Source: Candidatus Stammera capleta | GTDB taxonomy: Bacteria > Pseudomonadota > Gammaproteobacteria > Enterobacterales > Enterobacteriaceae | DNA: 64,000 nucleotides | Reading direction: 5' to 3' | Assembly: GCA_036689465.1 (NCBI GenBank) | Contig: CP144833.1 | Coordinates: 163,093-227,092, forward strand | Part shown: piece after piece, positions 7,191 to 62,695 of the stretch | How the letters are laid out: the number at the start of each line of letters is the position of its first letter | How positions within the stretch are numbered: position 1 is the stretch's first letter | Notes under the pieces: generated by a model | The model's input: the letters and a program-made list of their open reading frames with translations, nothing else | Told to the model about the DNA's origin: nothing | Database searches by the model: none | Translations under genes and position numbers: made by a program

Positions 7191-9611
7191 TTATATATCT
7201 ATATTAGATGTAATAACAAAATTATCTTCAATAAACTTTTTTCTTAATTTAATATTATCACCCATTAAAATTTTAAATAAATTATCAGTTTTATCATTAT
7301 TATTAATAGTAATTTTAGATAATATTCTTTTTTCAGGATTCATAGTAGATTCTCATAATTGAATAGGATTCATTTCTCCTAATCCTTTATAACGTTGTAT
7401 TAATATTTTTTTTTTATCTTTTTCTAAAATATAATTTATTAAAGAACCTAAATTAAAAAAATTTTTTTTTTTACCATTTACAATAATATATTTTATATAA
7501 AATTCATTAAAAAATGATATTTTTTTACCTAATTTCAAAAAAGAAAAATAATTATTTTGTAAAAAAAAATTATTAACACAAATAGTTTCTTTATTAAAAT
7601 TATGTAAATAAAAAAACTTTATTTTTAAAAAAATATTTTTATCAAAAACTAATTTAAAAAATATTTTTTTCCTAAAAATAGAATCATCTTTATTTAAAAA
7701 AACAATAAAATTATTAAGTCATTTATTTAAATTAACTATTGAAAAATCAGATATTTTTTTAAAAAACATAAGTTTATTTAAAATAAAATACGATAAATTA
7801 TTCTTATATTTAAATAAATAATTCAATATATTTATATATTTGTAAGATAAATGAATTAACATTTTATTATCTAATAAAATAGAATTATCATATTTATATA
7901 ACTCAATATCTTTAAAAGATAAATTAATTTTATATTTTATAAGATCACAATAATTTTTAATATATAATTCTTTTTTACCTTCATTAATTTTATATAAAGG
8001 AGGACGAGCAATATATAAATAACCTTCTTTTATTAAAGAAGGCATATATCTATAAAAAAAAGTTAATAACAAAGTACGTATATGAGCACCATCTACATCT
8101 GCATCAGTCATAATTATTATATTATGATATCTCAATTTATTTAAATTAAAATTCTTATTACCAATACCACATCCTAAAACTGAAACCAAAATATTTATTT
8201 CTTTAGAAGATAAAATTTTTTCTCAATTAGTTTTCTCAACATTAATAATTTTACCCTTTAAAGGTAAAACAGCTTGATTAACACGATTCCTACCTTGTTT
8301 AGCAGATCCTCCTGCAGAATCTCCTTCAACTAGAAAAATCTCAGAATAAGCGGGATTTTTTTCCTGACAATCAGCCAATTTACTAGCTGTAATATTTAAA
8401 TCTAAAATATTTTTTTTTCTTGATAATTCTCGAGATCTTTTAATCGATTCCCTTATATTATAAGAATTTATTATTTTATTAATAATTAATTTTGCATCAT
8501 GATTATGATTTATTAAAAAAAAAAACAAATTTTTATTAACTAATGATTCAACTACATATTTTACTTCTGAAGATACTAACTTTCCTTTAGTTTGAGAAGA
8601 AAATTTTGGATCAAACATTTTTATATTAATAATAGCAAACAATCCTACTCTAGTATCTTCACCTATCACATTAATTTTTTTTTTTGTACTATATTTTTTT
8701 TTATCTATATAAATATTGATACTACGAGTGATAGCAGATTTAAAACCTATTAAATGAGTTCCACCATCTACCTGAGGAATATTATTAGTAAAACATAAAA
8801 TTTTATTTTCTGTAGTATTTATCCATTGACATACTATTTCTAAATAAATATTTTTTTTTTTTTTTTTAAGAAAAAAAATATTTTTATGAAGTATATTTTT
8901 GTCTTTTATTAAATAAGATAAAAAAGATTTTATACCACCATAATTTATAAACTTATTTATATAATCAATTCTATTATCAATTAATTTAATATATAAACCA
9001 GAATTTAAAAAAGATAATTCATTTAATCTATTAAATATAATATTTAATTTAAATTGATTAAAATTTAAAAAAATTTTTTTATCAGGCCAAAATCTTATAT
9101 AAGTTCCGCTAATATTAGTCTTACCAATAACTTTAATATTTTTTTGGGGAAATCCAAATTTATAAATTTGATAATAAATTTTATTATCTCTATATATTTT
9201 TAATTCTAATTTTTCCGATAATGCATTTACAACTGAAATACCCACACCATGCAATCCACCAGAAAATTTATATGAACTATTATCAAACTTACTACCAGAA
9301 TGTAGTACAGTCATAATTAATTCAGCACTAGATATATTAGTATCACTATGTATATCTGTAGGTATACCTCTACCATCATCAAAAATTGATACAGAATTAT
9401 CTTTATATAAGGTTACAAAAATTTTTTTACAAAAACCGGCTAAACATTCATCTATAGAATTATCTATTACTTCAAAAACCATATGATGTAAACCTGTACC
9501 ATCACTAGTATCACCAATATACATACCAGGACGTTTACGAACAGCCTCTAAACCTTTTAAAATTTTAATACTTGAAGAATTATAAAAATTAGATAACATA
9601 TTTATACTCAT
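7191..9611 (-). CDS. gyrB: DNA gyrase subunit B
   Basis: ORFs 8223..9611, 7719..8189 and 7353..7538 are all in one frame relative to TAA at 7191 (807 codons). The ends are [16 protein letters not shown].. and ..NIDI*. It contains an in-frame A17 tract (sense) at 8851..8867. Confidence 0.97.
8851..8867 (-). repeat. A17 (sense) homopolymer inside gyrB, in frame
   Basis: The ORF-track translation ..[11 protein letters not shown].. fixes the tract at 17 nt. Confidence 0.85.
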
Positions 9612-9628
9612 TTAAAATTAAATATTAT

Positions 9629-10762
9629 TTATAATTGTATTGGCATAATCATATAATTAACATATTTATCATTAATGTTTAAAATTTTTACAATAGAATT
9701 ATTATCTTTAAAATAAATACGTATTTGAGATGAATTTTTTATAGTATTCAAAATATCTAAAATAAACTTAATATTTAAATTTAAATTAATATTACTACCT
9801 GAATATTCAATTAATATTTTTTCTTTTGTTTCATTATTATTAGAATCATCAGAAGATAATATAAGACAATTATTCTTAAAAAATAAACAAACATAATTAG
9901 AAATATTATTACTTATAATTAAAGAACGTAATAAAGCATTTTTAAATATTATTAAATCTAAATCTACACAAAAATAATCTTCAAAAGACAAAAAAATATT
10001 AGAATAATCTGGGAAAGAACCATTTATTAAACTTCCATAAATAACATAATTATTAAAAATTATTCTAATCATATTAAAATTTACTTCAAAAATAACTTCT
10101 TTATCATCTAAAAAATCAAAAAATTTAAATAATTCTACCACTAATTTTTTAGAAATTATTAAAGAAAAATTTTTTTTTTTACTTAATAATTTAAAATATT
10201 TTATAGACAATTTATAAATAGAAATACGATAACTATCTGTAGTTACAAAAAAAAAAAAACCATTCTTATATTCTATTAACATACCATTTAAATAATAATA
10301 TATATCTTGATCGCCCATAGAAAAATGTATTGAAAATATTATTTTTTTTAAAATATAACTAGAAATAGAAAATTTATTACAAAAAGAAAAATTTTTATTT
10401 ATAATAGGAAACTGTAATACAGGTAAAGTATTTAATAAAGAAATACTATTTAAACAACATAATCTTAATCTATTTTTATACAAATTTAAAAAAATTATAT
10501 CTTCATTTAAATAAGTACGAAATAATTCATATAAATTGCGCAAATTAACAGTAAAAGAACCAATAGAAAAAATATTTTTTTTTGATAATTTTATTTTACA
10601 ATTAATTTCTATATCTAAATCAGTAACTTTTAAACTTAGAGCGTTAAAATCTATTTTAACTAAAACATATGTCAAAATAATATTTTTATTAGAAATATTA
10701 ATATATGTATTTAACTTACTTAAAATATTAAATATTTTTTTTTTTTTTATAAAGAATTTCAT
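9629..10762 (-). CDS. dnaN: DNA polymerase III beta sliding clamp
   Basis: The intact 377-aa ORF lies directly upstream of gyrB and ends ..MIMPIQL (E. coli ..MPMRL). Confidence 0.9.
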   Translation of the reverse strand: MKFFIKKKKIFNILSKLNTYINISNKNIILTYVLVKIDFNALSLKVTDLDIEINCKIKLSKKNIFSIGSFTVNLRNLYELFRTYLNEDIIFLNLYKNRLRLCCLNSISLLNTLPVLQFPIINKNFSFCNKFSISSYILKKIIFSIHFSMGDQDIYYYLNGMLIEYKNGFFFFVTTDSYRISIYKLSIKYFKLLSKKKNFSLIISKKLVVELFKFFDFLDDKEVIFEVNFNMIRIIFNNYVIYGSLINGSFPDYSNIFLSFEDYFCVDLDLIIFKNALLRSLIISNNISNYVCLFFKNNCLILSSDDSNNNETKEKILIEYSGSNINLNLNIKFILDILNTIKNSSQIRIYFKDNNSIVKILNINDKYVNYMIMPIQL

Positions 10763-11673
10763 ATTTAGATAACAAAATTAATACAATTAAATTATTAAAA
10801 TTAACAACATTACTAGTAAAAATATTATTTTTATTATCTTTTACAAAAATATATTCTATATATTAAAAACTTAATTTAAATAAACTATAACAAATTAATT
10901 TTTACTAATAAATAAATATATAACTAAGAAAATATAAAATTAATAAATATATTTAAATATAAAGAATATAAAAATATAATTCTATAAAAATTAAATATTT
11001 TCTTATATATAAAATATATTTTAATATATTAAATTAATCTATTTTTTTTTAGAAAGTATATAATATATCTTTTACAAAATCAATATTTATATTATTTCCA
11101 TAATTTAAATACTTTAAATATATAAATAAATTTATATAATTATTATAAAACAAAATATATTATTTTATTAAAATTATAAATATAATATATATTTTTTTAA
11201 AAAAAGATAAAATTTATACTTTTAATTTTTTAAAAAATATACTTAATATTTTAATTATTATTAATATTTTTATTTAAATTTTAAATACATTTATTAAATA
11301 TAAATAATAATTTAATATTAAATTTTATTTAATTATTAAATATATAAATATTACCAACAGTATTTATTAAAATAAAAAATCATAAAAATAAAATTAATAA
11401 ATAAATTAACAAATTTATCATAAAAATTTTTTTAATAATTATTAAATATATAATAAAAAAATATAATATTAATTATATATAAAATTAAATAAATATTATC
11501 AATAAAAATATATAAATTTAAACCATATATTTATTTTAAATAAACTATATTTAAATTTATTAAAATATTTTATCTATAGATTTACTAATGAAATAAAACT
11601 TACATTTAATATAAATAAATATAATAGTATAATTATATATAAATAATATTAATTACGAATAAAAATAAAATAT
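10763..11673. other. 0.9-kb non-coding, almost pure A/T spacer in the slot normally occupied by dnaA; candidate replication-origin region
   Basis: There is no ORF and very few G or C. It lies between divergent dnaN (-) and rpmH (+), where Enterobacterales carry dnaA and its promoter. Confidence 0.5.
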
Positions 11674-11808
11674 ATGAAAAGAACATATCAACCATCAAAA
11701 ATAAAAAAAAAACGTACTCATGGATTTAAAAAAAGAATGTCAACAAAAAATGGTAGAAAAATATTATCATATAGAAGAAAAAAAAAAAGAAAAAAAATAT
11801 CTATATAA
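11674..11808 (+). CDS. rpmH: 50S ribosomal protein L34
   Basis: [44 protein letters not shown] (44 aa). Confidence 0.95.
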
Positions 11809-11830
11809 AAAATTTTCTTTACCTAAATTA

Positions 11831-12130
11831 ATGAAAATAAAAATTAAAAAAATATATATATATAAAAATAAAATATATAATTTTTTATCAATTAAAAGTA
11901 AAATCAATAAATTACATTATCCTAGAATAGGAATAATAATTCCTAAAAAAAAAATTAAATATGCAGTACAAAGAAATAAAATAAGAAGAATAATACATGA
12001 AACATTTCGTTTACAACAACATAAAATTAAAAATAATGACTATTTATTAATAATTAAAAAATATATTCTAAATATTAAAAAAAAATTTTTATTTTTAATT
12101 GAAAAAGTATGAAAAAAATATTACAAATAA
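11831..12130 (+). CDS. rnpA: RNase P protein component (start uncertain: 11831, or 11720/11750 inside rpmH)
   Basis: The ORF 11720..12112 frame continues through one TGA to TAA at 12128..12130. HYPRIGIIIPKKKIKYAVQRNKIRRIIHETFRLQQHKI is the RnpA core. Confidence 0.85.
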
Positions 12131-13543: not shown

Positions 13544-14944
13544 ATGATCAAAAATTTTTATGAAACCATATTAGCTCAATCAACTCCTATTGGATATGGA
13601 GGTATAGGTATAATTAGAATATCAGGTAAAAATTCTAAAAATATAGCCCAAAAAATATTAAATAAAAAATTATCTCCAAGAATTGCTAAATATACTTCTA
13701 TAAAAAATAAAAATGGAAAAATAATAGATTTTGGTATTGCAATATATTATAAATCTCCAGATTCATTTACAGGAGAAGATGTTTTAGAAATTCAATGTCA
13801 CGGAGGTCAAAAAATTATTAACTTAATTATTAAATCCATAATAAATTTAAAAATTAAAAATACAAGAATAGCAGAACCAGGAGAATTTACTGAAAGAGCT
13901 TATTGAAATAATAAAATAGATTTAATACAAGCAGAAACTATAAATAATTTAATATATTCTAATTCTGAAGAAAATATTTTTTCAGCAATCAAATCATTAA
14001 AAGGAGATTTTTCTAAAAAAATTAAAAAATTAATTAAAATAATTAATAATTTAATTTGTAAAATAGAAAAAAAAATTAGTTTTTCAGATAAAGAAATCAA
14101 TTCATTACAAATAATAAAAATTAAAGAAAATATAAATTTCATATACAAAAAAATTAAAAATATATATAAAAAATCTCAAAAAAGTTTTTTTATTAATAAT
14201 AAAATAAATATTTCTATAATAGGTAAACCTAATGTTGGTAAATCAAGTTTAATGAATTTATTAACCAACAAAAAAACCTCTATAGTAACTAATATACCTG
14301 GAACTACTAGAGATATAATTAAAAAATACCTAAATAATAATAACTTTAAAATACAAATAAATGACACTGCGGGAATACATAATACTAATAATAAAATAGA
14401 AAAAATAGGAATTAAAAAAACATGAAAATTAATTGATAAATCTCAAATAATTATTTTTATAGATAATGCATTTAATACATCAGAAAAAAAAATATATAAA
14501 ATATATAAAAAAAAAATACAAAAAAAAATTAAAAAAAAAAAAAAAATATTATATTTAATACGCAATAAAATAGATTTATCAAAAGAAAAAAAAAAAATAA
14601 TAAAAAAAAAAAAATATATTATTATAAATATGTCTATAAAAAAAAAATATGGAGTTAAAATAATTAAATCAGAAATAAATAAACAAATCAAAAAAATTAA
14701 TAAAAAAAATATATTTTTAGTACAACAAAGACATTTAAGTTTAATTAAAAAAATTTTAAAAGAAATTAAAAATTCTAAAAAAATAATTAAAAAAGATACA
14801 AATAAAAAAATAACTAATTTAGATATAATATATCAAAATTTATTTAACAGTCAAAAATTATTTAACGAAATATTAGGAACAAAAAAATTTACATCAAAAA
14901 AAATTATTTATAATATATTTAAAAAATTTTGTATAGGTAAATAA
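13544..14944 (+). CDS. mnmE: tRNA modification GTPase MnmE (TrmE)
   Basis: ORFs 13544..13906 and 14630..14944 are in the same frame (467 codons). It has the G1 motif GKPNVGKSSL, DTAGI, and the diagnostic C-terminal FCIGK. Confidence 0.93.
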
Positions 14945-16332: not shown

Positions 16333-16726
16333 ATATTATATTACACATAACAAGTTCTTTAAATTTTATTTTAAACAAATAAATTTAATACTAAAATAGC
16401 ATTTTAAAATAAAAAACTAATAATTTCAAAATATTATTTAATTTTCATTATCTAAAATATTATAGATATAATTTTTATAAAAAATAACATATAAAAATTA
16501 TTTAAATTAAATACAAAAATTAATTTTATTCTTATAAATATAAGAATATTTTTTAAAAAAAATAAACATTTAAAATACTTAAATTAATATTAATACACAA
16601 AAAAAATAAAATTAACAATACTATATATATTTAAAAAGTTAATAATGAAAAAAAATAAAATTAAATATATAATAACATATAAATGTATTAACTCAAAAAC
16701 ATAAAATTTAACTTATAAATAATAAA

Positions 16727-17719
16727 ATGGAAAAAATAATATTTTACAGTTCTCAAAAATATGAAATAAAATATTTTAATAAAATAAATAAAAAATATAA
16801 ATTTAAAATTACTTATACAAAAAAAAAATTAAATTTACATACAGTAAATAAAGTTAAAGGATTTAAATATATTTGTATATTTGTAAATGATAATCTTAAA
16901 GATATAAAAATAATAAAAAAATTAAAAAAATTTAAAGTAAAATTAATCGCTTTAAGATGTACAGGATTTAATAATGTTAATTTAGAGTTATTAAAAAAAA
17001 ATAACATAAAAATAATAAATGTTAAATCTTATTCACCTGAATCCATAGCAGAATATACATTAGGATTAATTTTAAATTTAAGTAGAAAAATATATTTATC
17101 TTATCAAAATACTAAAAATAAAAACTTCAAACTTAATAATTTAGTAGGTTATAACTTAAAAAATAAAACTGTAGGAATTATAGGAACAGGTAAAATAGGT
17201 AAAATAGTAATAAAATTATTAAAAAATTTTCAAACTAAAATATTAGCATTTGATATTATTAAAAATAATGAAATATTAAAATATGGTGCAAAATATACAT
17301 CAATAAAAAATATATATAAATATTCAGATATAATTAGCTTACATTGTCCATATAATGAAGAAAATCACCATATGATAAATAAAAAAGTTATAAAAAAAAT
17401 GAAAAATAAAGTAATGATTATAAATACTAGTAGAGGTGAATTAATTAATACCAAAGATATAATAAATGCAATAAAAAAAAAGCAAATTTCTTCTTTAGGT
17501 ATGGATGTATATTATCAAGAAGAAAAATATTTTTTTAAAAATTATTCTAATAAAATAATTAAAGATAATAATTTAAATATACTTTTATCATATCCAAATG
17601 TTTTAATAACAGGACACCAAGCTTTTTTAACTAAAGAAGCACTAATAAATATATCAAAAATTACTTTAAATAATATATATAAAATATCACAAAATTTAAA
17701 ATGTGATGATTATATTTAA
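16727..17719 (+). CDS. ldhA: fermentative D-lactate dehydrogenase (2-hydroxyacid dehydrogenase family)
   Basis: The intact 330-aa ORF is colinear with E. coli LdhA: ICIFVNDN, IALRCTGFNNV, GIIGTGKIG, ISLHCP, MIINTSRG, GMDVY, TGHQAFLT. Confidence 0.9.
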   Translation: MEKIIFYSSQKYEIKYFNKINKKYKFKITYTKKKLNLHTVNKVKGFKYICIFVNDNLKDIKIIKKLKKFKVKLIALRCTGFNNVNLELLKKNNIKIINVKSYSPESIAEYTLGLILNLSRKIYLSYQNTKNKNFKLNNLVGYNLKNKTVGIIGTGKIGKIVIKLLKNFQTKILAFDIIKNNEILKYGAKYTSIKNIYKYSDIISLHCPYNEENHHMINKKVIKKMKNKVMIINTSRGELINTKDIINAIKKKQISSLGMDVYYQEEKYFFKNYSNKIIKDNNLNILLSYPNVLITGHQAFLTKEALINISKITLNNIYKISQNLKCDDYI

Positions 17720-17727
17720 ATATAAAT

Positions 17728-19077
17728 ATGTATCAACAAGGATTCAAAACAAAAATTAAAAATGATTATTTTCCAAAAGGAATAAATAAAAAAATTATTA
17801 AAATAATATCTCAAAAAAGGAAAGAACCAATATGAATGTTAGAAATAAGATTAAAAGCATACAAAATATGAAAAAAAATGAAAGAACCTCATTGATTAAA
17901 TGGAAAATATAATAAAATAAAATATAAAAAAATAAAATATTTTTCTAAACCACAAGAAAAATCTTATATTAAGAAAAACATTAAAAAAACATTCAATAAA
18001 TTAGGTGTATTAAGAAAAAATAGTAATCTAGGTGTAGATGCTATATTTGATTCTGTATCAATTAAAACAACATACAAAAAAAAATTATATAATAAATATG
18101 GTATAATATTTTGTTCTTTTAATGAAGCAATACAAAATTATCCTAAATTAGTTAAAAAATACATTTGTAAGGTAATACCTATAAATGACAACTTTTTTTC
18201 TACTTTAAATACAGCAGTATTATCAGACGGAACATTTATATATATCCCTAAAAATACAAAATGCCCAATAAATTTATCATCTTATTTTAGGATAAATGCA
18301 AATGTTAGCCAATTCGAAAGAACTTTAATAATATTAAAAAAAAATAGTTCTTTAGAATATATTGAAGGATGTTCAGCATCAATAAAAAAATATAACCAAT
18401 TACATGCTGGTGTAGTAGAAATAATTTTAAGTCAAAATTCTAAAATTAAATATTCTACTGTTCAAAATTGATTTCCTGGTAATCCGAAAGGAGGAGTATT
18501 TAATTTTGTTACTAAAAGAGCATTATGTAAAGGAAATAAAAGTCAAATATCTTGAATACAATTAGAAACAGGATCTGCAATAACATGAAAATATCCTAGT
18601 ACAATACTTTTAGGTAATAACTCAAAAGGAAGTTTTTTTTCTATATCATTAACTAAATTAAAACAACAAGCAGATACAGGAACTAAAATGATACATATAG
18701 GTAAAAAAACAAAATCATTTATTTTAGCTAAAAGTATAGCAACAGATAAAAGTATTAATACTCATAGAAGTTTGGTAAAAATAAATAGAAAATCTAAAAA
18801 ATCAAAAAATTTCACTAAATGTTCTTCATTGATGATAGGAAATAATTGTTGTATATTTACTCAACCATATATTAAATCTCAAAACAAATATTCATATATA
18901 GAACACGAAGCTAGTACTACATATATAAAAAAAGAACAAATATTTTTTCTTATGCAAAGAGGAATAAAAAAAAATTATGCATTATCAATGATAATTAATG
19001 GATTTTGTCAAAATATTTTAAATAAATTACCACCAGAATTTATTTTAGAATCTAAAACAATATTTAACATTTTTTAA
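17728..19077 (+). CDS. sufB: Fe-S cluster assembly scaffold SufB
   Basis: ATG 17728 is in frame with ORF 18688..19077 through several TGAs. ..DGTFIYIPKN..RTLIIL...S.LEYIEGCSA..HAGVVEI..YSTVQNW..ITWKYPS..QADTGTKMIH. Confidence 0.93.
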
Positions 19078-19092
19078 AAAAATATATTTTAT

Positions 19093-19844
19093 ATGTATAT
19101 ATTAAAAATTAAAAAACTACAAGTTAAAATAAAAAAAAAATATATTCTTAATAATATAAATTTAAAAATAAAATACGGAGAAACTCATGTACTTATTGGA
19201 CCAAACGGTTCAGGAAAAAGCAGTTTATCTTTAGTTTTAGCAGGTCATAAAAAATACGAAATAATTAAAGGAAAAATATTTTTAGATAATATAAATATTA
19301 ATAAATTAACTATAGATAAAAGATCTAAAAAAGGATTATTTATATCATTACAAAATAGTATAGAAATACCAGGATTAAATAATCAATATTTTTTATTTCA
19401 AGCTTATAACTCTAAAAGAATTTATAATAAAAAAAAAGAAATAAATCTAATAAAATTCAAAAAAAAAATATTTAAATATTTAAAAAAAATAAATTTTTCT
19501 AAAAAATTTTTACAAAGATCTCTTAATGTAGGTTTTTCAGGGGGGGAAAAAAAAAAGAATGACATATTACAAATATTAATTTTAAAACCTAAATTAATTA
19601 TATTAGATGAAATAGATTCAGGATTAGATGTTAATACATTTCAAAAAATTATTAAAATAATCAATAAATTAAAAAAAAAAAAAAAAGTTTTCTAATAATA
19701 ACTCATAATTTTAAAATATTTGATTATATTAAAATTAATAAAGTACATATTTTAAATAAAGGAGAAATAATTGCATCAGGAAAAAAAAATATTATTAAAA
19801 TAGTTAAAAAAAAGGGTTACAAATATTTCAAAAAACAAAAATAA
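19093..19844 (+). CDS. sufC: Fe-S cluster assembly ATPase SufC, interrupted by a frameshift inside an A16 tract
   Basis: ORF 19093..19695 carries Walker A GPNGSGKSS, signature FSGGEKKK and Walker B LIILDEIDSGLD, then stops (..KKKKKVF*). The H-loop and C-terminus, SFLIITHNFKIFDYIKINKVHILNKGEIIASG..KKKGYKYF, follow in the other frame from 19686 to TAA at 19842..19844. Confidence 0.85.
19671..19686 (+). repeat. A16 homopolymer at the sufC frame break
   Basis: TTA followed by five AAA codons in the ORF-track translation fixes the run at 16 A. One extra A would restore KKKKKSFLIITHN. Confidence 0.85.
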
Positions 19845-19862: not shown

Positions 19863-20864
19863 ATGAAAATAAATAAAAGTAAAAATAAATATGAAAAAAA
19901 AATAAAATATATTATTAATAAAGTAACTAAAAAAATTTTACAAATAAAATCTAACAAAATATTTATTTTAGGTAGAAAAATTATATTATACAAAAATATA
20001 AACAAATTATTATCTATAAAATTACCCAAAAGTAAATATTACTTTATAAAAAAAAAAATAAAAAAAAAAAATATTAATTTACCTATACATTTAATTATAA
20101 TTAAAAAAAAAAAAAACGATTTTTTTAATATAAATATATCCATTAATAAAAATATATATATAAATATTATAGAAGAAAAAATAAATATCAGTAAAAATAA
20201 GTACTTTAATTTATTTTTAAATATAATAATACGTAAAAAATCTTACTTATATTATTTAAGAATAATAAATAATAATTTAAAAACTAAATTTTATTATGTA
20301 GATAATATTCAAGTAAATACTAAATCTAAATTTAAAAATAATATTTTCTTTATAAAATTTAAAAAAATTAATCTTATTAGTAATATAAAATTAAAAAAAA
20401 AATCTATTTTAGATATAAATAATATATCTATATTGCAAAAAAATTATTTAAAATTTAAAATAAATGTATTACATTGTTCTTCAAATACACAAAGCTATCA
20501 AAAATATAATAATATTATTTTAGAAAAAAGTATAATGAATTTTTCTGGATGAATAAAAATATTTAAACAATCATATTTTTCTAAAGCAAAAATAAAAAAT
20601 AATAACTTATGTATTTGTAAAAAATCAATTATAAATACTTCTCCAAAATTAAAAATAGAAAATAAAAATGCAAAATGCAAACATAATGTTAAAATAAATA
20701 ATTTAAATAAAGAAATAATATTTTATTTATTAACAAGAGGAATAAAATTTCAAAAAATAAAAAAAATATTAATTTTAAAATTTATTAAAAAAATATTAAA
20801 AAATAAAAATAATATACATATATATAAAAAAATATATTATATGTATAAAAAAATATTCAAATAA
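19863..20864 (+). CDS. sufD: Fe-S cluster assembly protein SufD
   Basis: ORF 19863..20552 continues through TGA. The C-terminal part, HCSSNTQSYQKY..FSGWIKI....AK....NL..S....I.T.P.L.I.....KC.H...I..L..E..FYL..RGI, fits SufD, and it sits between sufC and sufS. Confidence 0.8.
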
Positions 20865-20867
20865 TAT

Positions 20868-22100
20868 ATGAACTATAAAATAAAAAAAATAAAATTAGAC
20901 TTTCCTATATTAAGGAAAAAAATTAATAGAAATAAAATGGTTTATTTAGATAATGCATCTACATCTCAGAAACCTAAAATTGTAATTAATTCTTTAAATA
21001 AACTTTACAAAAATAATTATTCTTCTGTTAATAGAAGTATATATACACTAAGTAATAAAAATTCTAATAAAATAGAAAAAATAAGAATTAAAATAGCTAA
21101 ATTCATAAAAGCTACATCACCAGAAGAAATTATTTTTACTCAAAATACTACCGAAGGTATTAATTTAATAGCAAATGTACTAAGTAAAAAACATATATGT
21201 TCTAAAAATAATATTATAATTTCTATTTCAGAACATCATGCTAATTTCGTAACATGATATATAATTTGTAAAAATATAGGATGTGAATTAAAAATTATTG
21301 ATATAGATAAAGACGGAAATATTAATATAAATAAATTAAAAAAAATAATAAATAAAAATACTAAAATTATATCACTTACTCATATATCTAATGTATTAGG
21401 AATAATAAATCCAATAGAAAAAATTATTCAACTAATTAAAAAATTTAATATTATTACTATAATAGATGGATCTCAATCTATAGTACATAAACATATAAAT
21501 GTTAAAAAAATTAATTGTGATTTCTATATATTTTCTGGTCATAAAATGTATGCTCCAACAGGAACAGGTGTAATATATTGTAAAAAAAATATAATTCAAA
21601 ACCTAGATCCTTGAAAATTAGGCGGGGGAATAATAGCTAATATAAATATAAAAAACAATAATATCAACAACATAAAATTCATTAATTCACCATGAAAATT
21701 TGAATCTGGAACATATAATTTAGAATCAATTATAGGATTAGGAAAAGCTATTGATTACATTAAATCTATAGGATTAAAAAATATTATTAAACATGAAAAA
21801 AAAATTATTAACTATACCTTAAAAAAATTAAAATCAATACCAAATATTAAAATATATGGTACATTACCTAAAGTAGGTTTAATATCATTTAATATAAAAA
21901 AATTTCATTGTTATGATATAGGTATGTTATTAGACCAATATGGTATATCTATAAGAACAGGTAATCAATGTAGTATACCTTTAATGAAATTTTACAATAT
22001 ACCTGGAGTATGTAGAATATCTATAGCTATGTATACTTCTAAAAAAGATATAAATACTTTTATATATACACTAAAAAAAATTATCCAGAAAATTAAATAA
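20868..22100 (+). CDS. sufS: cysteine desulfurase SufS
   Basis: ORF 20868..21257 continues through TGAs (411 codons). LDNASTSQKP, SEHHAN, the PLP-lysine region FSGHKMYAPTGTGV and RTGNQCS are present. Confidence 0.93.
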
Positions 22101-25691: not shown

Positions 25692-27425
25692 ATGAAAAGA
25701 ATGTTGATAAACGCTACACAAAAAGAAGAATTACGTATAGCATTAGTAGATGGACAAAAATTATATGATTTAAATATAGAAAACACTAAATATACACAAA
25801 AAAAATTGAATATTTATAAAGGAAAAATTACCCGAATAGAACTTAGTTTAGAAGCGGTATTTATAAATTATGGATCAAAAAAAAATGGTTTTTTACCAAT
25901 AAAAGAAATATCAGAAAAATATTTAAATAAAAAAGAAAAAAATATTAAAAATGCATTATATGAAGGAAAAAAAATAATAGTTCAAATACGCAAAGAAGAA
26001 AGAGAAAATAAAGGAGCAGTATTAACAACATTTATTAGTTTAGTAGGTAGTAATATAATACTTTTACCAGATAATCCTAAATCTAGCGGTATATCAAGAA
26101 AAATAGAGGGTAAAGAAAGAAATAAAATAAAATCCAAATTAAAAAAAATACATTTACCTAAAAATATGGGTTTAATAATTAGAACATCAGGTATTGATAA
26201 ATCTCTTGAAAAACTTAAATCTGATATAGAATTAAAATTAAAACACTGAGAATATATTAAAAAAATAGCAAAAAAAAAACAAGCTCCTTCATTAATATAT
26301 CAAGAAAATAATATACTCATTCGTACATTTAGAGATTATTTACATAACGATATAAATGAAATTATAATAGATAATTATAAAATTTATAAATTAGCTATAA
26401 ATAAAATATATGAATTAAAAAGAAATAATTTTATAAAAAAAATAAAATTTTATAAAAATAATATTCCTTTATTTATATATTTTAAAATAGAAACACAAAT
26501 AGAATCAGCTTTTAAAAGAAAATTAAGATTACCTTCAGGAGGATCAATAACCATTGATATTACAGAAGCATTAACATCTATAGATATAAATTCATCAAAA
26601 TCAACAAAAAATAAAGATATAGAAAATACAGCTTTTAATACTAATTTAGAAGCTACTGATGAAATAGCTAGACAATTAAGATTAAGAGATGTAGGAGGGT
26701 TGATAGTTATAGATTTTATAGATATGTCTATATTACAAAATCAAAAAATTATAGAATATAAATTAAAAAAAAATATTAAAAATGATAGAGCTAAAATCCA
26801 AATAGGATATATTTCTAAATTTGGTTTATTAGAAATGTCTAGACAAAGACTAAATCCTTCTCTTAAAGAATCCAGTTATTATATGTGCCCTAGATGTTGT
26901 GGTTCTGGTAATATTAGAGATAACGAATCATTATCATTATCTATATTAAGAATTATCGAAGAAGAATCTCTTAAAAAAAATATTAAAAAAATACATGCTA
27001 TAGTTCCAATAAATATAGCATCATATTTATTAAATAAAAAAAGAGATCATTTATATAATATAGAAAAAAAAAAAAAAAAAAAAATTAAAATTATAATTAT
27101 ACCTAACGAAGAAATAGAAACACCTAACTATTCCATAATAAAAATAAAAAAAAATAAAGAAAAAAAAAAATACAAAAAAAAAAAAATAAATAATATAAAA
27201 AAAAATAATTATTATAAATATAAAAAAATAAACAATTATATAACAGAAAATAAAAAAAATAATAATTTCTTAAATAAAATTAAAAATAAAATTTATGAAA
27301 AAATAAATATTTTCATTAACAAAATTAAAAAAAACATATTTCAAGAAAGAATAAATTATCAAAATGATAATGAATATAAAGATAATAAAAGAAAAAATCT
27401 TAAAAAAATACTTGAAACAATATAA
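25692..27425 (+). CDS. rne: ribonuclease E (catalytic N-terminal half plus Lys/Asn-rich tail)
   Basis: ORFs 25692..26249 and 26700..27425 are in frame (578 codons). MKRMLINATQKEELRIALVDGQKLYDL, IVIDFIDM and the Zn-link CPRCCGSG are present. It contains an in-frame A21 tract. Confidence 0.93.
27064..27084 (+). repeat. A21 homopolymer inside rne, in frame
   Basis: The ORF-track translation ..NIEKKKKKKIKII.. fixes the tract at 21 nt. Confidence 0.85.
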
Positions 27426-36623: not shown

Positions 36624-39600
36624 TTAAATATTGAAAATTAAATAATTAAACATAATTAATAATCATTCTTCTGACCTATTAATAATAAAATCAAAATCAA
36701 TTTTTAAATTAAATTTTTTTATATAATTATATATATATATATCATTTAATTCTCCAAAAATAAAAAAATTACCATATAAAAAATTATATAAATTATGTTT
36801 AATTTTATTAATTATAAAATTACTTTTTTTTTTTTTATTTATTAAATTATAAGCATTTCATACCCAAAAATGACTAAATTTAGGTAAAAAAAATATATTT
36901 TTCACATTTAAATAATAATAAAAAAATATATATTTATATAAATAAAATTGAGATAATTCTTTATTTATAGGAGGAAAACTTCATACACCATTATAACCAT
37001 AAATATTACTATATTTATTACCACCTAATAAACAATAAACTAAATGTTCAATTCAAAATAATAAAGCATCTATTAAATTTAAATTTTTAGGTAATCATTT
37101 AATCACACCATATTTAGCACATAAGTTAATAGTACCATATAAATTAAAATCTAAAATTTTTAAAAAAAAATTATATTTTTTGATATTTAAAAAAAAATTT
37201 TTAATTTTATTTATCAAAAAAATAACTTTATCTTTTTCTTTTTCTCATAAAATTTTACCAAAAGTACTAATAGGAAATAAATTTAAAGATTGTAAATAAT
37301 ATATCATATTATTATTTATAACTTTATATTTAAAAAAATAATTTATTATATCAAATCTAAAAAAATAAAATTTTTTTACATTTAATTGAAAAAAATTTTC
37401 GTAATTTATTTTCTCCTGAAATATAAAATAATTTATTTTTAAAAAATAACACATAAAATATTTAATAGGATTAGATAAAAATAAAAAAAAATTACCTAAA
37501 AAAACATTTTTTTTTCTTTTAATTTTTATAAAAAAATTATAATTTTTAAATATATTTTTTTTAAAAAAAACAAAGTCATAAAATATTTTTTCTTTATTTT
37601 TTAATAACACATTACTTTCTTCTAAATAATTTATAATATTTTTTACTAAAATAGAAGGAAAATATTTTATGTGATCTAAAAAAGAAAAATTTAAATAACT
37701 AATATAAATCTTTTCTTGTGCTGATAATAATAATTTCATAAAAATATATTTATCGTAATCTAATTTATTTTTATCTCCTATTCTAGGATTAAAATACATT
37801 AAATCAAAACTATAATTTAATTTATATTTTGGATAAATACTATCATTTAAACCTAAAAAACATATTACTTTAAAAGGAATTCCATGTAATGTTACAAAAG
37901 AAGAAAAATTTAAATTACTTAATGAATATAATTTACTTTTTTTTTTATTTAAAAAATAAATAAAAATTTTCGTAAACAAATCAACATTAATTTTTTTTTC
38001 AAAAAAAATAAAATTATATTTCTGAGACAAATTAAATCATATTTTATAATTTAAAAAAAAGTTTTCCTTAATAATTTCTTTGGGGAAAAAATCATTTAAA
38101 AAATTTTTACTGATTTCAATTCAATTACTAAAAAAATAATTTATATTAATAATTTTTTTTCAATTTAATATTTTAAATATAAAATCAGATAACTTACCTA
38201 TTAAAGAATAAAAAAAATTATTACTAATAGTTGGATAAGGTGTTAATTTATTTCAAAAACAATATTTTTCATTTATTGCATAACCTAATAATATACGTTT
38301 AATACTATTTAATAAATTTAAATAATTAAATTCATATAAATTATCATTTACTAATAAATTATTAATATTAACACAAATACCATCATTTTTAATAAAATTA
38401 GAAATTATATTAAATTCCTCAATACTAATATTAAATTTATCTAAAAAAACTTTATTTTTTAAAAAATATAGAATCGTACTAAAATTAAATTTAATATTTG
38501 AAATATTTAATAAATTTAAAAATAAATTCAATATTTTATTATCAAAAGAAAAATTTTTTTCCATAATATGGAATGGCAAATATTTTTTACATATATCATC
38601 TGAAAAAACAGTTTTTATATACGGATAATATTTATTTAAATCACTTACTATCACAATAATATCATTAACATAATATTTTTTTTTTTGAATTAAATTTAAT
38701 AAAAATAATTTTAATTTTAATAATTCATCAATATAACCATTAGAATTATTAATAATTATAGAATTATCATTTTTCTGTTGAATTATTTTTTTTTTTAAAA
38801 TAACTGGACTTCTAAAATTTAAAATATCATTTTTAATGATATTTAATATATTTTTTTTAGAAAATTTTACAAAACAATTTATTTCAATAAAATTTAATTC
38901 ATTAAATAAAAATAAATATTCAGCTAAAAAATTACAATTATTAAGTAATAAAGAATTTTTTTTATGTAAAATAAAATTTATACCCTTAATATTTTTTTTT
39001 AAAATAAAAATATTTTTTTTACTAAAATAAAAACGATCAAATCAAAATTTAGAACTAGGATTAATAATAAAATAATGTATATTAATACATTTAGATAATA
39101 TATTTAAGGTATTTAAATATATTTGAGGTAAATAAGATACATTAAAAATAAATAAATCAGAAATTTCTTTTTTTAAAATATTTAAATATTTTTTTTTTTT
39201 TAAACTTAAAAATTTATGATATATTTTACATCTATTTCAAGTAAAATTAAATTTTTTATCATAAAAATAAATAATTTTTCTTCATAAAATTGATTGTCAT
39301 AACTGATGAATATTATTTCTTAAATTATCTACAAAAGTAAATTTTTCTCATTTATATAATCAATCTACACGATACATTAAATATTTATCATATATATCAG
39401 ATATTCTACAAGATAAACTAAATAATTTATAATAATCATTAGAATCATATAAATATTTTTTAAGTACAAAAAATTCTTTTAAATTTAATAATTTAGGTAA
39501 TATATTCATAATTACAAAAACCAAATTATTTTTTTCAAAAAAATATTTTTTAGGTATTTCAGGAATTAAAATTCTGTAAATATTTCATATAAATTTAGCC

Positions 39601-39791
39601 GGTAAAATAAATTTAAAATTAGCGCAAATACCTAATTTTTTAGATAAAAACATCTTTAAAAAAAAAGATAGATTATTATCTGGTATTAAAATTGTATTAG
39701 ACAATATTGTTTTTCTTTTATTTTTTTTTAATTTATAAAGTAATACATATTGTAATACTTCCAAATCATTGGACTGATATAATATAAACAT
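36624..39791 (-). CDS. recC: exodeoxyribonuclease V gamma subunit
   Basis: ORFs 39585..39791, 38253..38654 and 37245..38030 are in frame (1056 codons). The N-terminus MFILYQSNDLEVL.....GICANFKFILPAKFIW matches E. coli RecC. Confidence 0.9.
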
Positions 39792-39799
39792 ATATATAT

Positions 39800-40274
39800 A
39801 TATTATAAAAAAAAAAAATAAATAAATAAAGAAAATATAATATAATTAATTATTTTAATACGAAAGAAAAATCATAGAGGAAATCTCGTTTTTATATTTA
39901 AAGGTCAAAAAAAATATATTCCTCGACAAGTAAATATATCAGCTACTATATGACTCACATATCCTAATAACATACCTATAATTATATCTAAATTAAAATT
40001 TAGATAAAAAAAATTCAAATAAAACAAAAAAAAGAAAAAAAAAACTAAAAAAAATAAACTATGTGTAAATTTTCTATGTTTAAAAATTTTCAAAAAAAAA
40101 AAAAAATATATTAAAATTTAAAAAAGACTTAGGATGATCTAAATCTGGCAATAAACAAGTTATTAAACTAGAAAAAATTATATGTCATAAATCTAAATAA
40201 ATAAAAAGATTAAATATTTTGATAAATAACAAAACAAAAAAAAAAGAAAAAAACAAATGATTCCTAAAATTCAC
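39800..40274 (-). pseudogene. ydjM: YdjM-like membrane-bound metal-dependent hydrolase (DUF457), frameshifted in a T15 (sense) tract; 3' end approximate
   Basis: The N-terminal part, from GTG 40274, reads NFRNHLFFS..WHIIFSSLITCLLPDLDHPKSF in one frame. The C-terminal part is ORF 39905..40093, (L)KIFKHRKFTHS..GMLLGYVSHIVADIFT.RGI.FFW, in another frame. The two meet at the 40092..40106 homopolymer. The stop position after the TGA at 39905 is not resolved by hand. Confidence 0.55.
40092..40106 (-). repeat. T15 (sense strand) homopolymer at the ydjM-like frame break
   Basis: The run of 15 A on the + strand follows c40091. The ORF-track start TTG at 40093..40091 anchors the position. Confidence 0.7.
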
Positions 40275-40355
40275 AATATACCTTCAAATATAAAAATTTA
40301 AAAAATTAATTTTAAAATAATAATAATTATATAATAGTAATTATAAAATAATAAT

Positions 40356-42161: not shown

Positions 42162-42692
42162 ATTAAAATTTACAAAAAAATATATACTAAAAAACTACAC
42201 AGAACAAATTATGAAATAAAATCACCAACTATTAAAATAGTTGGAGATAATTTTAAAAATATTAAAATAATTAAAACTAGTGAAGCTATTAAATTAGCTA
42301 AAAAAAATAATTTAGACTTGGTAGAAATTAATTCAAATAATAAACCACCTATATGTAAAATATTAAATTACGGTAAATTTTTATATAAAAAAAATAAAAG
42401 AATTAAAAAAAATAAAATAATTAATATTAAAGAAATAAAATTTAGACCTAATACTAATATAAATGATTTTAATATAAAAATTAAAAATATTAAACGTTTA
42501 ATTAAAAAAGGGAATAAAATTAAAATAATTATGAGATTTAAAGGAAGAGAAATAATACACAAAAATATAGCATTAAATATGCTTAATAATATTAAAAAAA
42601 AATTATCTAAAATATCACAACTCATATTTTTCTCTAAAAAAACTGAAAACAGACAAATTATTATGATTCTTAATCCTCAAAAAAAAAAATAA
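42159..42692 (+). CDS. infC: translation initiation factor IF-3 (ATT start)
   Basis: The ORF 42318..42692 frame extends upstream to the thrS stop. ..[18 protein letters not shown]......[33 protein letters not shown] is colinear with E. coli IF3. Confidence 0.9.
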
Positions 42693-42696
42693 TATT

Positions 42697-42894
42697 ATGC
42701 CAAAAATTAAAACTATTCATGCAGTAGTTAAAAGAATTAAAAAACTTGCTTCAGGAAAATTAAAATTTAAACAAACAAATTTACGTCATATATTAACTAA
42801 AAAAAAAAAAAAAAGAAAAAGACATTTACGTAATAAAAAAATAGTTAATAAAATAAATACTAAAATAATAATTAGAAGTATTCCATATTTATAA
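42697..42894 (+). CDS. rpmI: 50S ribosomal protein L35
   Basis: [35 protein letters not shown]. Confidence 0.95.
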
Positions 42895-46461: not shown

Positions 46462-46752
46462 ATGAATTATAATAAAAAAGATATAGTAAATTATATTAAA
46501 AAAAGAAGTAAAATAAGTAAAAAAAACATTAATTTAATTATTGATATTTTTTTAAAAAATATAATATATTATATAAAAAACAAAAAAATTATTAAAATAA
46601 AAAATTTTGGAATTTTTTTTTTAAAAAAAACACAAAAAAAAAAATGAATACATCCTAAAAACAAAAAATTATATATTATATATCCTCAAAAAAAACTTAA
46701 ATTTAAAATTAGTAAAATATTTAAAAAAAAAATTAATAAATTATTTAAATAA
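46462..46752 (+). CDS. ihfA: integration host factor alpha subunit (HU/IHF family)
   Basis: It lies immediately after pheT, as in E. coli. ..IKIKNFGIFFLKKTQKKKW(TGA)IHPKNKK..I...KKLKFK is the beta-arm region. Confidence 0.8.
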
Positions 46753-46781
46753 TATTAAATTAAAGATAAAATATAAAAAAA

Positions 46782-47501
46782 ATGAAAATTAAAAAAAAAT
46801 ATATAAAAACAAAAGATAAAAATTTACTACCTATATATTTATATAAACCTAAAAAATTTTTATCAAGTAAAAAAATTATAATAGTAATAGAAGAAATATT
46901 CGGAGTTAATAAAAATATTAAAAAAATATGTAAAAAAATATCTAAATATAATTATTTATCTGTAACACCCGAATTATTATTTAGAATTAAAAACATAAAT
47001 TTTAAACAAAATATTAATAATTTAAGAGAACAAGTAAATACTTTATCAGATAAAAATATTATTAGTGATCTTATAGATATGATAAATTGATTAAAAAAAA
47101 AATACAAAACTAATAAAATTGGTATGACAGGTTTCTGTTGAGGTGGTAGAATAACTTGATTATTTTCATATTTTCAAATATTACACATTAAAACAGCAGT
47201 AATATGATATGGAAGATTAATGGATATAAGAAATAATAATCATCCTATACATCCTTTAGATATAGGTAGTAAAATAAAAATACCAGTACTAGGTTTATAT
47301 GGTGAAAAAGATAAAAGTATACCTATAAATACAGTTGAAAAAATGATTAAAAAAATTACTCTTAATAATAAAAAAAACAAAATTATAATTTATAAAAAAG
47401 CTCAACACGGATTTTTTGCAGATTATAGATTAACATACAATAAAAAAATAGCTAAAAAAGCTTGAAAAAAAATGATTAACTGATTTAAAAAAAATATATA
47501 A
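46782..47501 (+). CDS. ysgA: dienelactone hydrolase family protein (YsgA-like carboxymethylenebutenolidase)
   Basis: ORFs 46782..47090 and 47220..47465 are in frame. IIVIEEIFGVNKNIKKICKK, MTGFCW(TGA)GGRITW, VLGLYGEKD and the catalytic His in QHGFFADYR are colinear with E. coli YsgA. Confidence 0.85.
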
Positions 47502-52754: not shown

Positions 52755-52798
52755 AACATCTCCCCATTTTTTTTGAAAAAAAAATAAACAATTTTTTT

Positions 52799-53978: not shown

Positions 53979-54767
53979 ATGTTTAAAAAAAAAACTGTCA
54001 TTTTTTTAGATTCTGGTGTAGGTGGATTATCTATTTTAAAAAGCATATATAAATATTTAAAAAATATAAAAATAATTTATTTCATGGATGACTTAAAATT
54101 TCCTTACGGAAATAAAAATTATTTATATATTACAAAAAGAATACATAAAATTATTAAATATTTAAATAAAATTTATCATATTTATACATTAATACTAGCA
54201 TGTAATACTGCTACTATAATTAGTATAAATTATTTAAAAAAAAAATTTAAATTTCCTATTATAGGTACATTTCCTTCTATTAAGAAATCTATTCACAAAA
54301 CAAAAAAAAAAATAATTTTATTAATAGGAACATATTTAACTATTAATTCTTGATATATAAAAAATTTAATTAAAAATAATTCACCTAAAAATATTAAAAT
54401 TATTAAAAAATATTCATCAGAATTAGTATATTTAGCAGAATTAAAAATAAAAAAAAATAAAATAAATTTAAATAAAATAAAAAATATTTTTAAAAAAGAA
54501 AAAAAAATTAAAAATTTAGATACTATTATAATAGGATGTACTCATTATAACTTTTTAACAAAAGAAATAAAAAAAGTTTTTCATAAAAAAATATATCTTA
54601 TAAAAAATTTAATAAAAATTAAAAAAAAATGTTTTGATAATATAAAAAAAAAAAAAAAAAAAAAAAAATATTTTTTTTATAAAAAAAAAAAAAAAAATAA
54701 AAATAACTTTATGAAAAATATCAATAAAATATATAAATTTTCTATATTCAAAAAAATTAAAATTTAA
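53979..54767 (+). CDS. murI: glutamate racemase
   Basis: IFLDSGVGGLSIL, FPYGNK, LACNTA and IIGCTHY are present. The 3' end as drawn reads through the A25/T8/A17 tract in frame, and this part is not anchored by the ORF track. Confidence 0.85.
54644..54697 (+). repeat. compound homopolymer: about A25, TATTTTTTTTAT, about A17, in the 3' part of murI
   Basis: Read directly from lines 54601-54720. Run lengths were counted by hand. Confidence 0.7.
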
Positions 54768-54776
54768 TAATTGAAA

Positions 54777-55427
54777 ATGATTAATAAAAAAAAAAATAAA
54801 AATAATAATAAGTTTAAAAATATATTAAAAATATCTATATTTTTTAGAATTATAGAAATAATAACAAAACTAAATAATACAAATATAATATATTGAAAAA
54901 TATTATACATATTTTTTATAATAAATAAATTAATAGAATACCCTTATATAATAATTACACACATTATATTAATTTATATTTATAAAAAAATATATAATAT
55001 ATCTAATATAAAAAATATTGTATTTATGTCATGTAGTATATTATTATTATCTTTAATAACTAAAGAAATTATCAAAAAAAATATTTATATTTCAAGACCA
55101 TATAAAAGTATTAATATAAAAAAACAAATTAATAAAAAAAATATACCTAAATGAATTATGGATCAATGAAAATATAAAAATAGTAGTTCCTTTCCATCAG
55201 GACATACAATATTTACAAGTTACTGAATAATGTTATTTTGAAAAAAAAAAAAAAAAAATTCAATAATAATATTATTATTAACAGTATTAACTAGTACTAG
55301 AATATTTTTATTACTACATAGAAGTCAAGAAATAATATTTAGTTTCATAATAAATAATATTTCTAAATATATAATTAATAAAACATTATTTATTTATAAA
55401 TATATTAAAACTAGATTTCAAATATAG
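54777..55427 (+). CDS. pgpB: PAP2-family lipid phosphatase (PgpB-like)
   Basis: The three PAP2 motifs are present: KKNIYISRP, FPSGHT and STRIFLLLHRSQE. W.YKNSSSFPSGHTIFTSYW aligns with E. coli PgpB W.KETGFAFPSGHTMFAASW. There are several in-frame TGAs and an in-frame A18 tract. Confidence 0.6.
55241..55258 (+). repeat. A18 homopolymer inside the PgpB-like gene (in frame as read)
   Basis: TTT TGA followed by an A run, then TTCAAT. Both flanking motif blocks are in the same frame by hand count. Confidence 0.6.
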
Positions 55428-62028: not shown

Positions 62029-62695
62029 ATGAATTTTTCTATTAAAGAAATGATTGATGTAGGAATACATTTTGGACATCAAACAAAACACTGACATCCT
62101 AAAATGAAACCTTATATTTATACTAAACATAATAAAATACATATTATCAATTTAGATAAAACAATTAAATTATTTTATATAGCATTAAAAGAACTAAAAA
62201 AAATAAATAAAAAAAAAAAAAAAAATATTATTTATAGGCACTAAAAAAGCTGCAAGTAATTTTATTAAAAATACTGCTATAAAATGCAATCAATATTTTA
62301 TTAACAATCGTTGATTAGGTGGAACATTAACTAATTGAAAAACAGTAAAAAAATCCATTAATTTTTTAAAAGAAATAGAACAACAATCTAAAAATGGACT
62401 ATTAGAAAAATTAACTAAAAAAGAAATTTTACAAAAAAAAAGATTATTAAAAAAATTAAAAAATAATTTAGATGGCATAAAAAATATGAATAATTTACCA
62501 GATGCTATATTTGTAGTAGATGCTAATTACGAAAATTTAGCAATAAAAGAAGCTCAACAATTAAAAATAAAAACATTTGCTATAATAGATACTAATACTA
62601 ATCCAGAAGGATTAGATTATATAATTCCTGGTAATGACGATTCTTCAAAATCTATAAAATGATATTGTGATAATATTATAAAATATATTAAATAA
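62029..62695 (+). CDS. rpsB: 30S ribosomal protein S2, interrupted by a frameshift inside an A17 tract
   Basis: The SD AAGAGG and ATG 62029 give [22 protein letters not shown](TGA)HPKMKPYIY...HIINLDKT in frame 1. That frame ends ..KKKKKNIIYRH* at 62242..62244. ILFIGTKKAAS...NRW LGGTLTNW K...IFVVD....AIKEA..L.I..FAI.DTN..P.....IPGNDD continues in the next frame to TAA at 62693..62695. The ORF track lists no + ORF of 60 aa or more here, which an in-frame gene would have produced. Confidence 0.85.
62209..62225 (+). repeat. A17 homopolymer at the rpsB frame break
   Basis: ATAAAT is followed by 17 A, then TATTATTTATAGGCACT. Sixteen A would give KKKKKILFIGTKKAAS, matching E. coli GKILFVGTKRAAS. 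Confidence 0.8.

Follow-up and report, generated by a model that had tools for sequence, protein, structure and literature searches.

A 16-nucleotide poly(A) tract splits sufC in Candidatus Stammera capleta, a possible case of a live gene rescued by slippage during expression

Split sufC and its two halves

We analyzed 64,000 nucleotides (nt) of Candidatus Stammera capleta DNA (contig CP144833.1, positions 163,093 to 227,092 of the forward strand; hereafter the window, with coordinates counted from its first letter) and found that sufC is split by a homopolymer of exactly 16 A on the + strand (positions 19671-19686). The locus is a sufC orthologue as judged from its profile score, motifs and operon context, but the deposited open reading frame (ORF) is not intact. 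The explanation that we favor, with a confidence just short of even, is that A16 is the real genomic length and that full-length SufC would be obtained through slippage during expression. The source chromosome is 297,036 bp long with 15.6% GC; the window has 15.6% G+C and contains 177 A-runs and 52 T-runs of at least 9 nt. The parts of the sufC locus are as follows.

19093 to 19695, + strand: sufC in the genomic 0 frame, 200 amino acids (aa), with Walker A, Q-loop, ABC signature, Walker B and D-loop; recorded as P0004 on the NCBI chromosome
19198 to 19221, + strand: Walker A, GPNGSGKS, sufC 0 frame
19534 to 19557, + strand: ATP-binding cassette (ABC) signature, FSGGEKKK, sufC 0 frame, aligned to E. 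coli SufC
19594 to 19629, + strand: Walker B LIILDE and D-loop SGLD, sufC 0 frame
19671 to 19686, + strand: A16 homopolymer, the lysine run and frameshift site; A17 or A14 restores the frame
19686 to 19844, + strand: sufC 3' segment in the other frame, 52 codons with the H-loop and C-terminus, stop TAA at 19842-19844
19698 to 19709, + strand: H-loop ITHN of sufC, accessible only past the frame change; His205 corresponds to E. coli His203

The 0-frame product ends in INKLKKKKKVF and is followed by TAA TAA TAA, with the first stop at 19693-19695. This triplet is a stop under genetic code 4 (UGA = tryptophan) too, so the break in sufC stands. In the other frame, no stop interrupts the stretch between AGT at 19686 and the TAA at 19842-19844; its translation is SFLIITHNFKIFDYIKINKVHILNKGEIIASGKKNIIKIVKKKGYKYFKKQK, running SFLIITHNF...GYKYFKKQK and including the H-loop. 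As deposited, the H-loop and C-terminus thus do not lie in one uninterrupted frame with the 0-frame motifs, and a frame change after residue 198 is needed to reach the H-loop. The first-pass annotation of this DNA had given the same split, stop, other frame and motifs, and its anatomy of sufC proved exact to the coordinate. It had missed code 4, which leaves sufC unaffected and changes the reading of its neighbors.

With A17 the joined protein has 250 aa and with A14 it has 249 aa, one lysine fewer, in agreement with the earlier claim that either length would encode a normal SufC. Against the TIGR01978 (sufC) profile the joined A17 protein scored 287.3 bits over profile positions 1-242 of 243, while the truncated 200-aa ORF scored 233.8 bits over positions 1-195 of 243; both exceed the curated cut-off of 212.8 bits. 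Residues 4-249 of the joined protein aligned without gaps to residues 2-247 of E. coli SufC (PDB 2D3W; also 2ZU0) over 246 residues, bearing out the proposal that the missing H-loop and C-terminus match the E. coli protein. INKL and SFLIITH, which flank the run, align to E. coli on either side of it, again with no gap.

The probability of a 52-codon open stretch in a non-coding frame was estimated from base composition as about 0.006, and the segment past the frameshift contributes 53 bits of family-specific score, which together indicate that the split arrangement did not arise by chance. No second stop or indel was found in either half of sufC. The downstream frame has no ATG, GTG or TTG start ahead of the H-loop, and a two-piece SufC with a separately translated C-terminal part was therefore rejected. 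The H-loop block SFLIITHNFKIF.YIKINK.HILNKG is conserved relative to the closest relative, L001. Of the 51 codons of the post-tract segment compared with L001, 8 differ synonymously and 11 non-synonymously, a sample of sites too small to reveal either constraint or relaxation, so that only the conserved H-loop block is informative here.

The suf operon under genetic code 4

In Stammera UGA encodes tryptophan and prfB has been lost (PMC8629427, PMC10540940). UGA is read as sense throughout the window (for example in 17683-19077, 20865-22100 and 36624-39845), in agreement with the known code-4 reassignment; eight such codons occur in the sufB frame and 17 in a 1073-aa recC-like gene. ORF calling with table 11 therefore falsely fragments many genes of the window. 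The table-11 ORF list suggested fragmentation of sufB, sufD and sufS, which was rejected as all three are intact under code 4. Read with this code, the window consists of closely packed intact genes and three split ones, each at a long homopolymer, and sufC is the sole broken suf gene. The order sufB-sufC-sufD-sufS-sufE in the code-4 gene map is the same in L061, L062 and L063. The partner genes of sufC are listed below.

17728 to 19077, + strand: sufB, intact under code 4, with 8 UGA-Trp codons in the open frame 17683 to 19077
19863 to 20864, + strand: sufD, intact under code 4, 333 aa
20868 to 22100, + strand: sufS, intact under code 4, 410 aa
22103 to 22534, + strand: sufE, intact, 143 aa

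SufC is the ATPase of the SufBC2D complex, and the SufB, SufD, SufS and SufE partners are expected to be non-functional without it. Moreover, sufS is among the 20 most constrained (lowest-omega) genes of Stammera, with omega values of 0.009-0.018 (bioRxiv 10.1101/2023.12.12.571295).

The sufC run in other Stammera lineages

The comparison set comprised 17 Stammera sufC loci: 15 chromosomes found in a scan of species-representative genomes with the repaired SufC as query, L061, and the window. sufC was present in 17/17 loci, with 58-88% identity across the 15 scanned chromosomes, and the representative closest to the window, CP145602.1, is about 90% identical to it at the DNA level. Every locus examined carries a lysine run of 8-17 nt at the sufC site, where E. 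coli SufC has RDGKR. The run is in frame in 15 loci and shifted solely in the window and L061. In L002, L004 and L005 the codon TTA is followed by enough A for A17, while the window has TTA followed by A16, one base short. The run of L001 is also A16 yet in frame, owing to a leucine codon CTC, and L023 has a naturally shorter form (K4).

The second, independent case is CP144837.1 (L061), which has A16 for A17 and a 201-aa truncated product (P0010). CP043991.1 (L005), 98.1% identical to it over the shared 20.6 kb, has A17. These two separately sequenced genomes differ by 382 substitutions and six internal indels over this distance, and the sufC run is the only indel between them that breaks a gene body, with all other long runs in agreement. 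Furthermore, Logan re-assemblies of raw reads were identical to the NCBI assemblies through the A17 run of sufC in two sister lineages, which makes an assembler error unlikely.

Directly after the D-loop SGLD, a UGA (Trp) codon was observed in L001 (~10535) and L004 (~10535), where other lineages have I, L or V, an unusual residue beside a catalytic motif. In-frame stops after SGLD in these two sufC genes were considered and rejected, since the TGA codons are read as Trp.

Frameshifts at other long homopolymers

The first-pass annotation had stated that the same pattern recurs in rpsB and a ydjM-like gene. Both are indeed split at long runs, but these runs are one base too long rather than short.

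62029 to 62695, + strand: rpsB, split at A17 (62209-62225), with the 0-frame stop at 62242-62244; A16 gives a 221-aa S2 protein
39803 to 40340, - strand: ydjM-like membrane protein gene, split at a sense-strand T15 (40092-40106); T14 or T17 gives 178/179 aa

The repaired rpsB product (221 aa) covers positions 1-211 of 216 of the Pfam S2 family, and its spacing equals that of the ten closest orthologues inspected (...KIN(Q/K)(E/K)KKK-ILF...). The remaining Stammera RpsB proteins retrieved, from about 35 lineages, are full length. The A-run at 62209-62225 is uninterrupted in the lineage of the window only, and the orthologues P0129-P0137 read N-Q-E-K-K-K or similar; these residues imply CAA and GAA interruptions, indicating that the frameshift followed a recent merging of shorter A-runs by substitutions to A. 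For the ydjM-like gene, repair to T14 or T17 raised the YdjM Pfam score from 20 to 81 bits. Further cases lie in other lineages: sufB of L028 (8898-8912), a second affected suf gene, and rluD of L011 (2524-2538) each have A15 where A16 is required, while at 14450-14465 of L011 an A16 stands where A15 or A18 is required. The last shows a weak match to the family AAA_26 (26.6 bits against a cut-off of 27) and was counted as likely.

Seven frameshifts occur across the 17 loci, of which six were verified within genes and the seventh is likely. Every one of them is at a run of 15-17 nt, and long-run frameshifts are genus-wide in Stammera assemblies. Coding runs of 12-14 nt were in frame in 182 of 182 cases; among those of 15-17 nt, 26 were in frame and 6-7 shifted; and none of the scorable runs of 18-25 nt was out of frame (four in the 17-locus scan and the A25 in murI of the window, with the same frame on either side). 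Of the seven shifted runs, four lack a single base; the other three, those of rpsB, the ydjM-like gene and L011 at 14450, have one base too many (or lack two). Other frame switches flagged by the scan turned out to be gene boundaries and were discarded: rpmH/rnpA at 11778, infC/rpmI at 42679, ihfA and its neighbor at 46623-46799, the position just upstream of pgk at 52792, and murI and its neighbor at 54786. The long coding runs of the window that are in frame are listed below.

27064 to 27084: A21 in rne
54644 to 54668: A25 in murI
54681 to 54697: A17 in murI
55241 to 55258: A18 in the gene after murI
8851 to 8867: A17 (sense strand) in gyrB
14531 to 14546: A16 in mnmE
42799 to 42814: A16 in rpmI

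These runs are ideal internal controls for stutter at the level of reads. If slippage is as frequent as expected, a large share of the transcripts from them would be out of frame.

The state of rpsB also bears on whether sufC has recently become a true pseudogene, that is, whether the shift is real but unrescued and leaves an inactive 200-aa protein without an H-loop. Ongoing genome erosion, the variable gene content among Stammera lineages (pntAB, for example, is absent in the window and present in L061) and the restriction of the sufC shift to certain lineages would fit such a loss. Nevertheless, neither half of sufC has a second lesion, the four partner genes sufB, sufD, sufS and sufE are intact, sufC was retained at every locus compared, and purifying selection on sufS is very strong. 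A lesion of this type is also found in rpsB, which cannot be dispensable, indicating that simple gene death is not a general explanation. A dead sufC is unlikely, and we give this account only a slight chance.

An essential gene such as rpsB that is shifted at A17 means that the genome requires either a rescue mechanism or a sequencing error. In the latter case the deposited A16 of sufC would be wrong or would represent one allele, the true or co-dominant run being A17, through a miscall caused by polymerase chain reaction (PCR) or cluster stutter, or through a mixed and possibly polyploid population with in-frame copies. We regard this as quite possible, though on balance doubtful. PCR stutter at homopolymers mostly shortens runs and is heavy at 16-17 nt in PCR-amplified Illumina data. 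The genomes derive from NEBNext Ultra II (PCR-based) libraries sequenced as 2x150 Illumina reads from 1-3 dissected beetles, and both sufC cases would be an A17 called as A16, the direction favored by stutter. The restriction of shifts to runs of at least 15 nt (0/182 at 12-14 nt) is what a majority-vote error predicts, sufC shows no decay, and an apparently broken gene for an essential ribosomal protein is suspicious for an assembly. By contrast, contraction-biased stutter should not yield a consensus that is too long, so the three one-base-long cases among the seven are not easily explained by it, and the scorable runs of 18-25 nt, where the worst stutter is expected, are all in frame. The agreement of the two 98%-identical genomes at all other long runs, as well as the exact recovery of A17 by a different assembler in the two sister lineages, also argues against a miscall. 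The first-pass annotation had named RNA-polymerase slippage and assembly error as the two explanations, and both are live. The earlier finding at sufC is accurate, and its interpretation was sensible and is partly supported.

Possible slippage during expression

According to the explanation based on slippage, sufC would be alive and needed, with a genomic A-run for lysine that lacks one base (TTA + A16, not A17). RNA polymerase would slip on the 16-nt run and produce transcripts of mixed length; those with A17 (the +1 class), and less often those with A14 (the -2 class), would restore the sufC frame, perhaps with a contribution from backward sliding of the ribosome on the AAA repeats. At runs of about 15 nt or more, slippage may be so frequent that a one-base change in the template has only a modest effect on the amount of protein. 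Mutations of this kind would be frequent and meet with weak selection against them, and we propose this combination as the reason why long-run shifts recur. That sufC is probably live is suggested by the gapless full-length SufC obtained with a one-A repair, the lack of any other lesion and the intact partner genes.

Published measurements lend this explanation some support. In Buchnera and Blochmannia, the frame was corrected at poly(A) runs in 12-50% of transcripts (Tamas et al. 2008, cited after PMC5009743), the precedent to which the first-pass annotation had pointed. Among transcription errors in A/T runs, single-base insertions dominate and rise exponentially with run length (PMC5574713), which matches the need of sufC for exactly one added base. 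In E. coli, repeated AAA codons cause ribosomes to slide (Koutmou et al. 2015, PMC4363877); this second possible route of rescue was missed in the first-pass annotation, which had named polymerase slippage correctly. The tryptic peptide KKKKKSFLIITH that it had proposed for detection of the full-length protein is impractical, since trypsin cleaves at each lysine.

Several observations weigh on the other side. The sufC shift is not conserved, and with 15 of the 17 lineages in frame it is without the signature of long-term maintenance reported for Blochmannia. No shift was found at 12-14 nt, though slippage rescue has been documented at such lengths elsewhere, and the abrupt onset at 15 nt is also compatible with a majority-vote artefact of sequencing. 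The PCR-amplified Illumina libraries behind the Stammera genomes are error-prone at 16-17-nt homopolymers, and an error at sufC would be in the shortening direction that stutter favors. The proteins of the window strain are recorded from NCBI only, with no independent assembly in the cluster look-ups, and the unique sufC flank was unmatched in the metagenome scan. Exact look-ups of the SufC ORF and of a neighboring protein of the window in the contig index gave no hit either. In addition, a transcriptome-wide study of Buchnera saw zero cases of frame restoration (PMC5574713).

The sequence of the run itself raises the question of rescue by the ribosome. The A16 could be real and be rescued mainly in translation, by a -1 slide on the five AAA codons into AGT TTT CTA with little contribution from the polymerase. 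For tRNA-Lys, A AAA AAA is a well-known slippery sequence. E. coli ribosomes have been shown to slide along repeated AAA lysine codons (PMC4363877), and PMC5009743 discusses corrective frameshifting for both endosymbionts and organelles. However, no stimulatory element was detected: the 90 nt downstream of the sufC run fold with -9.2 kcal/mol (z = -1.0 compared with shuffled sequences). rpsB and the ydjM-like gene would require the opposite shift, and direct measurements in insect endosymbionts place the correction at the level of the transcript, according to PMC5009743. We therefore hold mainly translational rescue to be unlikely. A programmed frameshift of the dnaX or insertion sequence (IS) type is not supported, as conservation of the shift is lacking and shuffled sequences fold as well as the 90 nt downstream.

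It is also conceivable that the run serves as a regulatory or phase-variable switch, in which changes in length tune SufC as at a contingency locus or through programmed slippage. The lysine run is kept in many Stammera lineages at 8-17 nt, which would fit such a switch. Nevertheless, mutational bias towards AT in a basic loop (RDGKR in E. coli) explains the run best, and A-runs of at least 9 nt are common, with the 177 of the window counted above. The out-of-frame state is rare and accompanied by no conserved stimulator, and switching off Fe-S (iron-sulfur) assembly has no obvious use in a vertically inherited symbiont. This makes a switch very improbable, and slippage on a real A16 stays the explanation that we prefer.

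Comparison with known systems

The poly(A) rescue described for Buchnera aphidicola and Blochmannia pennsylvanicus (Tamas et al. 2008, relayed in PMC5009743) resembles Stammera sufC in its one-base shift in a long A-run, an otherwise intact gene and a tiny, AT-rich genome of an insect symbiont. A +1 class of transcripts would restore the frame in sufC as well, and the resemblance of sufC to this class is one seen in its genome sequence. Stammera differs from these symbionts in its use of code 4 and in being an extracellular symbiont of beetles. The runs studied by Tamas and colleagues were reportedly of roughly 10 nt, and the 16-nt run of sufC is longer. Wernegreen and colleagues are said to have described, in 2010, ancient frameshifts in Blochmannia homopolymers that are conserved across species and maintained by selection. 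These have in common with sufC that homopolymer shifts occur in needed genes of a reduced symbiont genome; in contrast to them, 15 of 17 Stammera lineages lack the sufC shift, which recurs independently.

Candidatus Providencia siddallii, a leech symbiont that is evolving UGA-to-Trp reassignment, has a few coding sequences frameshifted in poly(A/T), which were interpreted as rescued by slippage (PMC10540940). Like Stammera it is a reduced gammaproteobacterial symbiont with code-4 features and poly(A/T) frameshifts. Unlike in Stammera, the genes concerned are rlmE, murI and znuA, some of them common across the lineage, and the evidence there is likewise inferential.

Ribosome sliding on poly(A) (PMC4363877) and dnaX-type -1 frameshifting on A AAA AAG share with sufC the iterated AAA that lets the ribosome lose its frame, and a -1 slide would give the correct SufC. 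Programmed sites, however, have conserved stimulators and a fixed product ratio, none of which was detectable at Stammera sufC. E. coli SufC (PDB 2D3W, 2ZU0, 5AWF) and the Stammera protein have the gapless alignment, all ATPase motifs and the order sufBCDSE in common, whereas the Stammera gene requires a frame change after residue 198. Homopolymer miscalls in PCR-based short reads are likewise confined to the longest runs and would account for a one-base contraction as in sufC, but expansions make up three of the seven Stammera cases, and at other long runs there is agreement between independent assemblies and libraries.

Other features of the window

Some further features were observed outside the genes discussed above. 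A gene-free, very AT-rich spacer of about 875 bp (10778-11652) lies between dnaN (9629-10777, - strand) and rpmH (11653, + strand). This is the usual site of dnaA, which is seemingly absent from the locus, and the spacer may contain the replication origin. recF is missing between dnaN and gyrB (7191-9611). The open frame of rpmH (L34) at 11653-11808 overlaps the frame containing rnpA (11705-12130) by about 100 nt in a different frame.

In L061 (4638-7514), L062 and L063, the transhydrogenase genes pntA and pntB lie between ruvX and an ldhA-like gene. The window has just a 376-bp spacer (16336-16711) at this position, which suggests a lineage-specific loss of pntAB.

Implications for Stammera

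No mention of slippage or homopolymer frameshifts was found in the Stammera literature searched. If real, the split sufC would be a new example of a known phenomenon, the poly(A) frameshift rescued by slippage, and with a real A16 Stammera would be added to the few symbionts, Buchnera and Blochmannia among them, whose required genes outlast shifts thanks to slippage in expression. It would be a more extreme case: the runs are 15-17 nt long, a gene for an essential ribosomal protein is affected, sufC is the sole broken gene of an otherwise intact Fe-S assembly operon, and the shift recurs independently at one site; the frameshift in rpsB, if real, would especially raise its significance. Stammera pseudogene calls and 'core genome' counts, which are based on Prokka annotation and Pseudofinder, may misclassify such genes. 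If the A16 is an artefact, the lesson would be one of caution, as runs of at least 15 nt in Illumina-only assemblies would need a check at the level of reads before gene loss is inferred from them.

More broadly, it is possible, though we put it forward with more doubt than confidence, that the reading frame at Stammera coding homopolymers of at least about 15 nt is weakly selected. Slippage during expression would blur the frame to such an extent that one-base changes would be near-neutral, recurrent (as in sufC, twice in separate lineages) and persistent even in rpsB. A real sufC shift would help to quantify how much genome decay is tolerable before function is lost, and weak selection on the frame would make a measurable part of the proteome encoded by a 0.3-Mb genome dependent on the infidelity of the polymerase or the ribosome.

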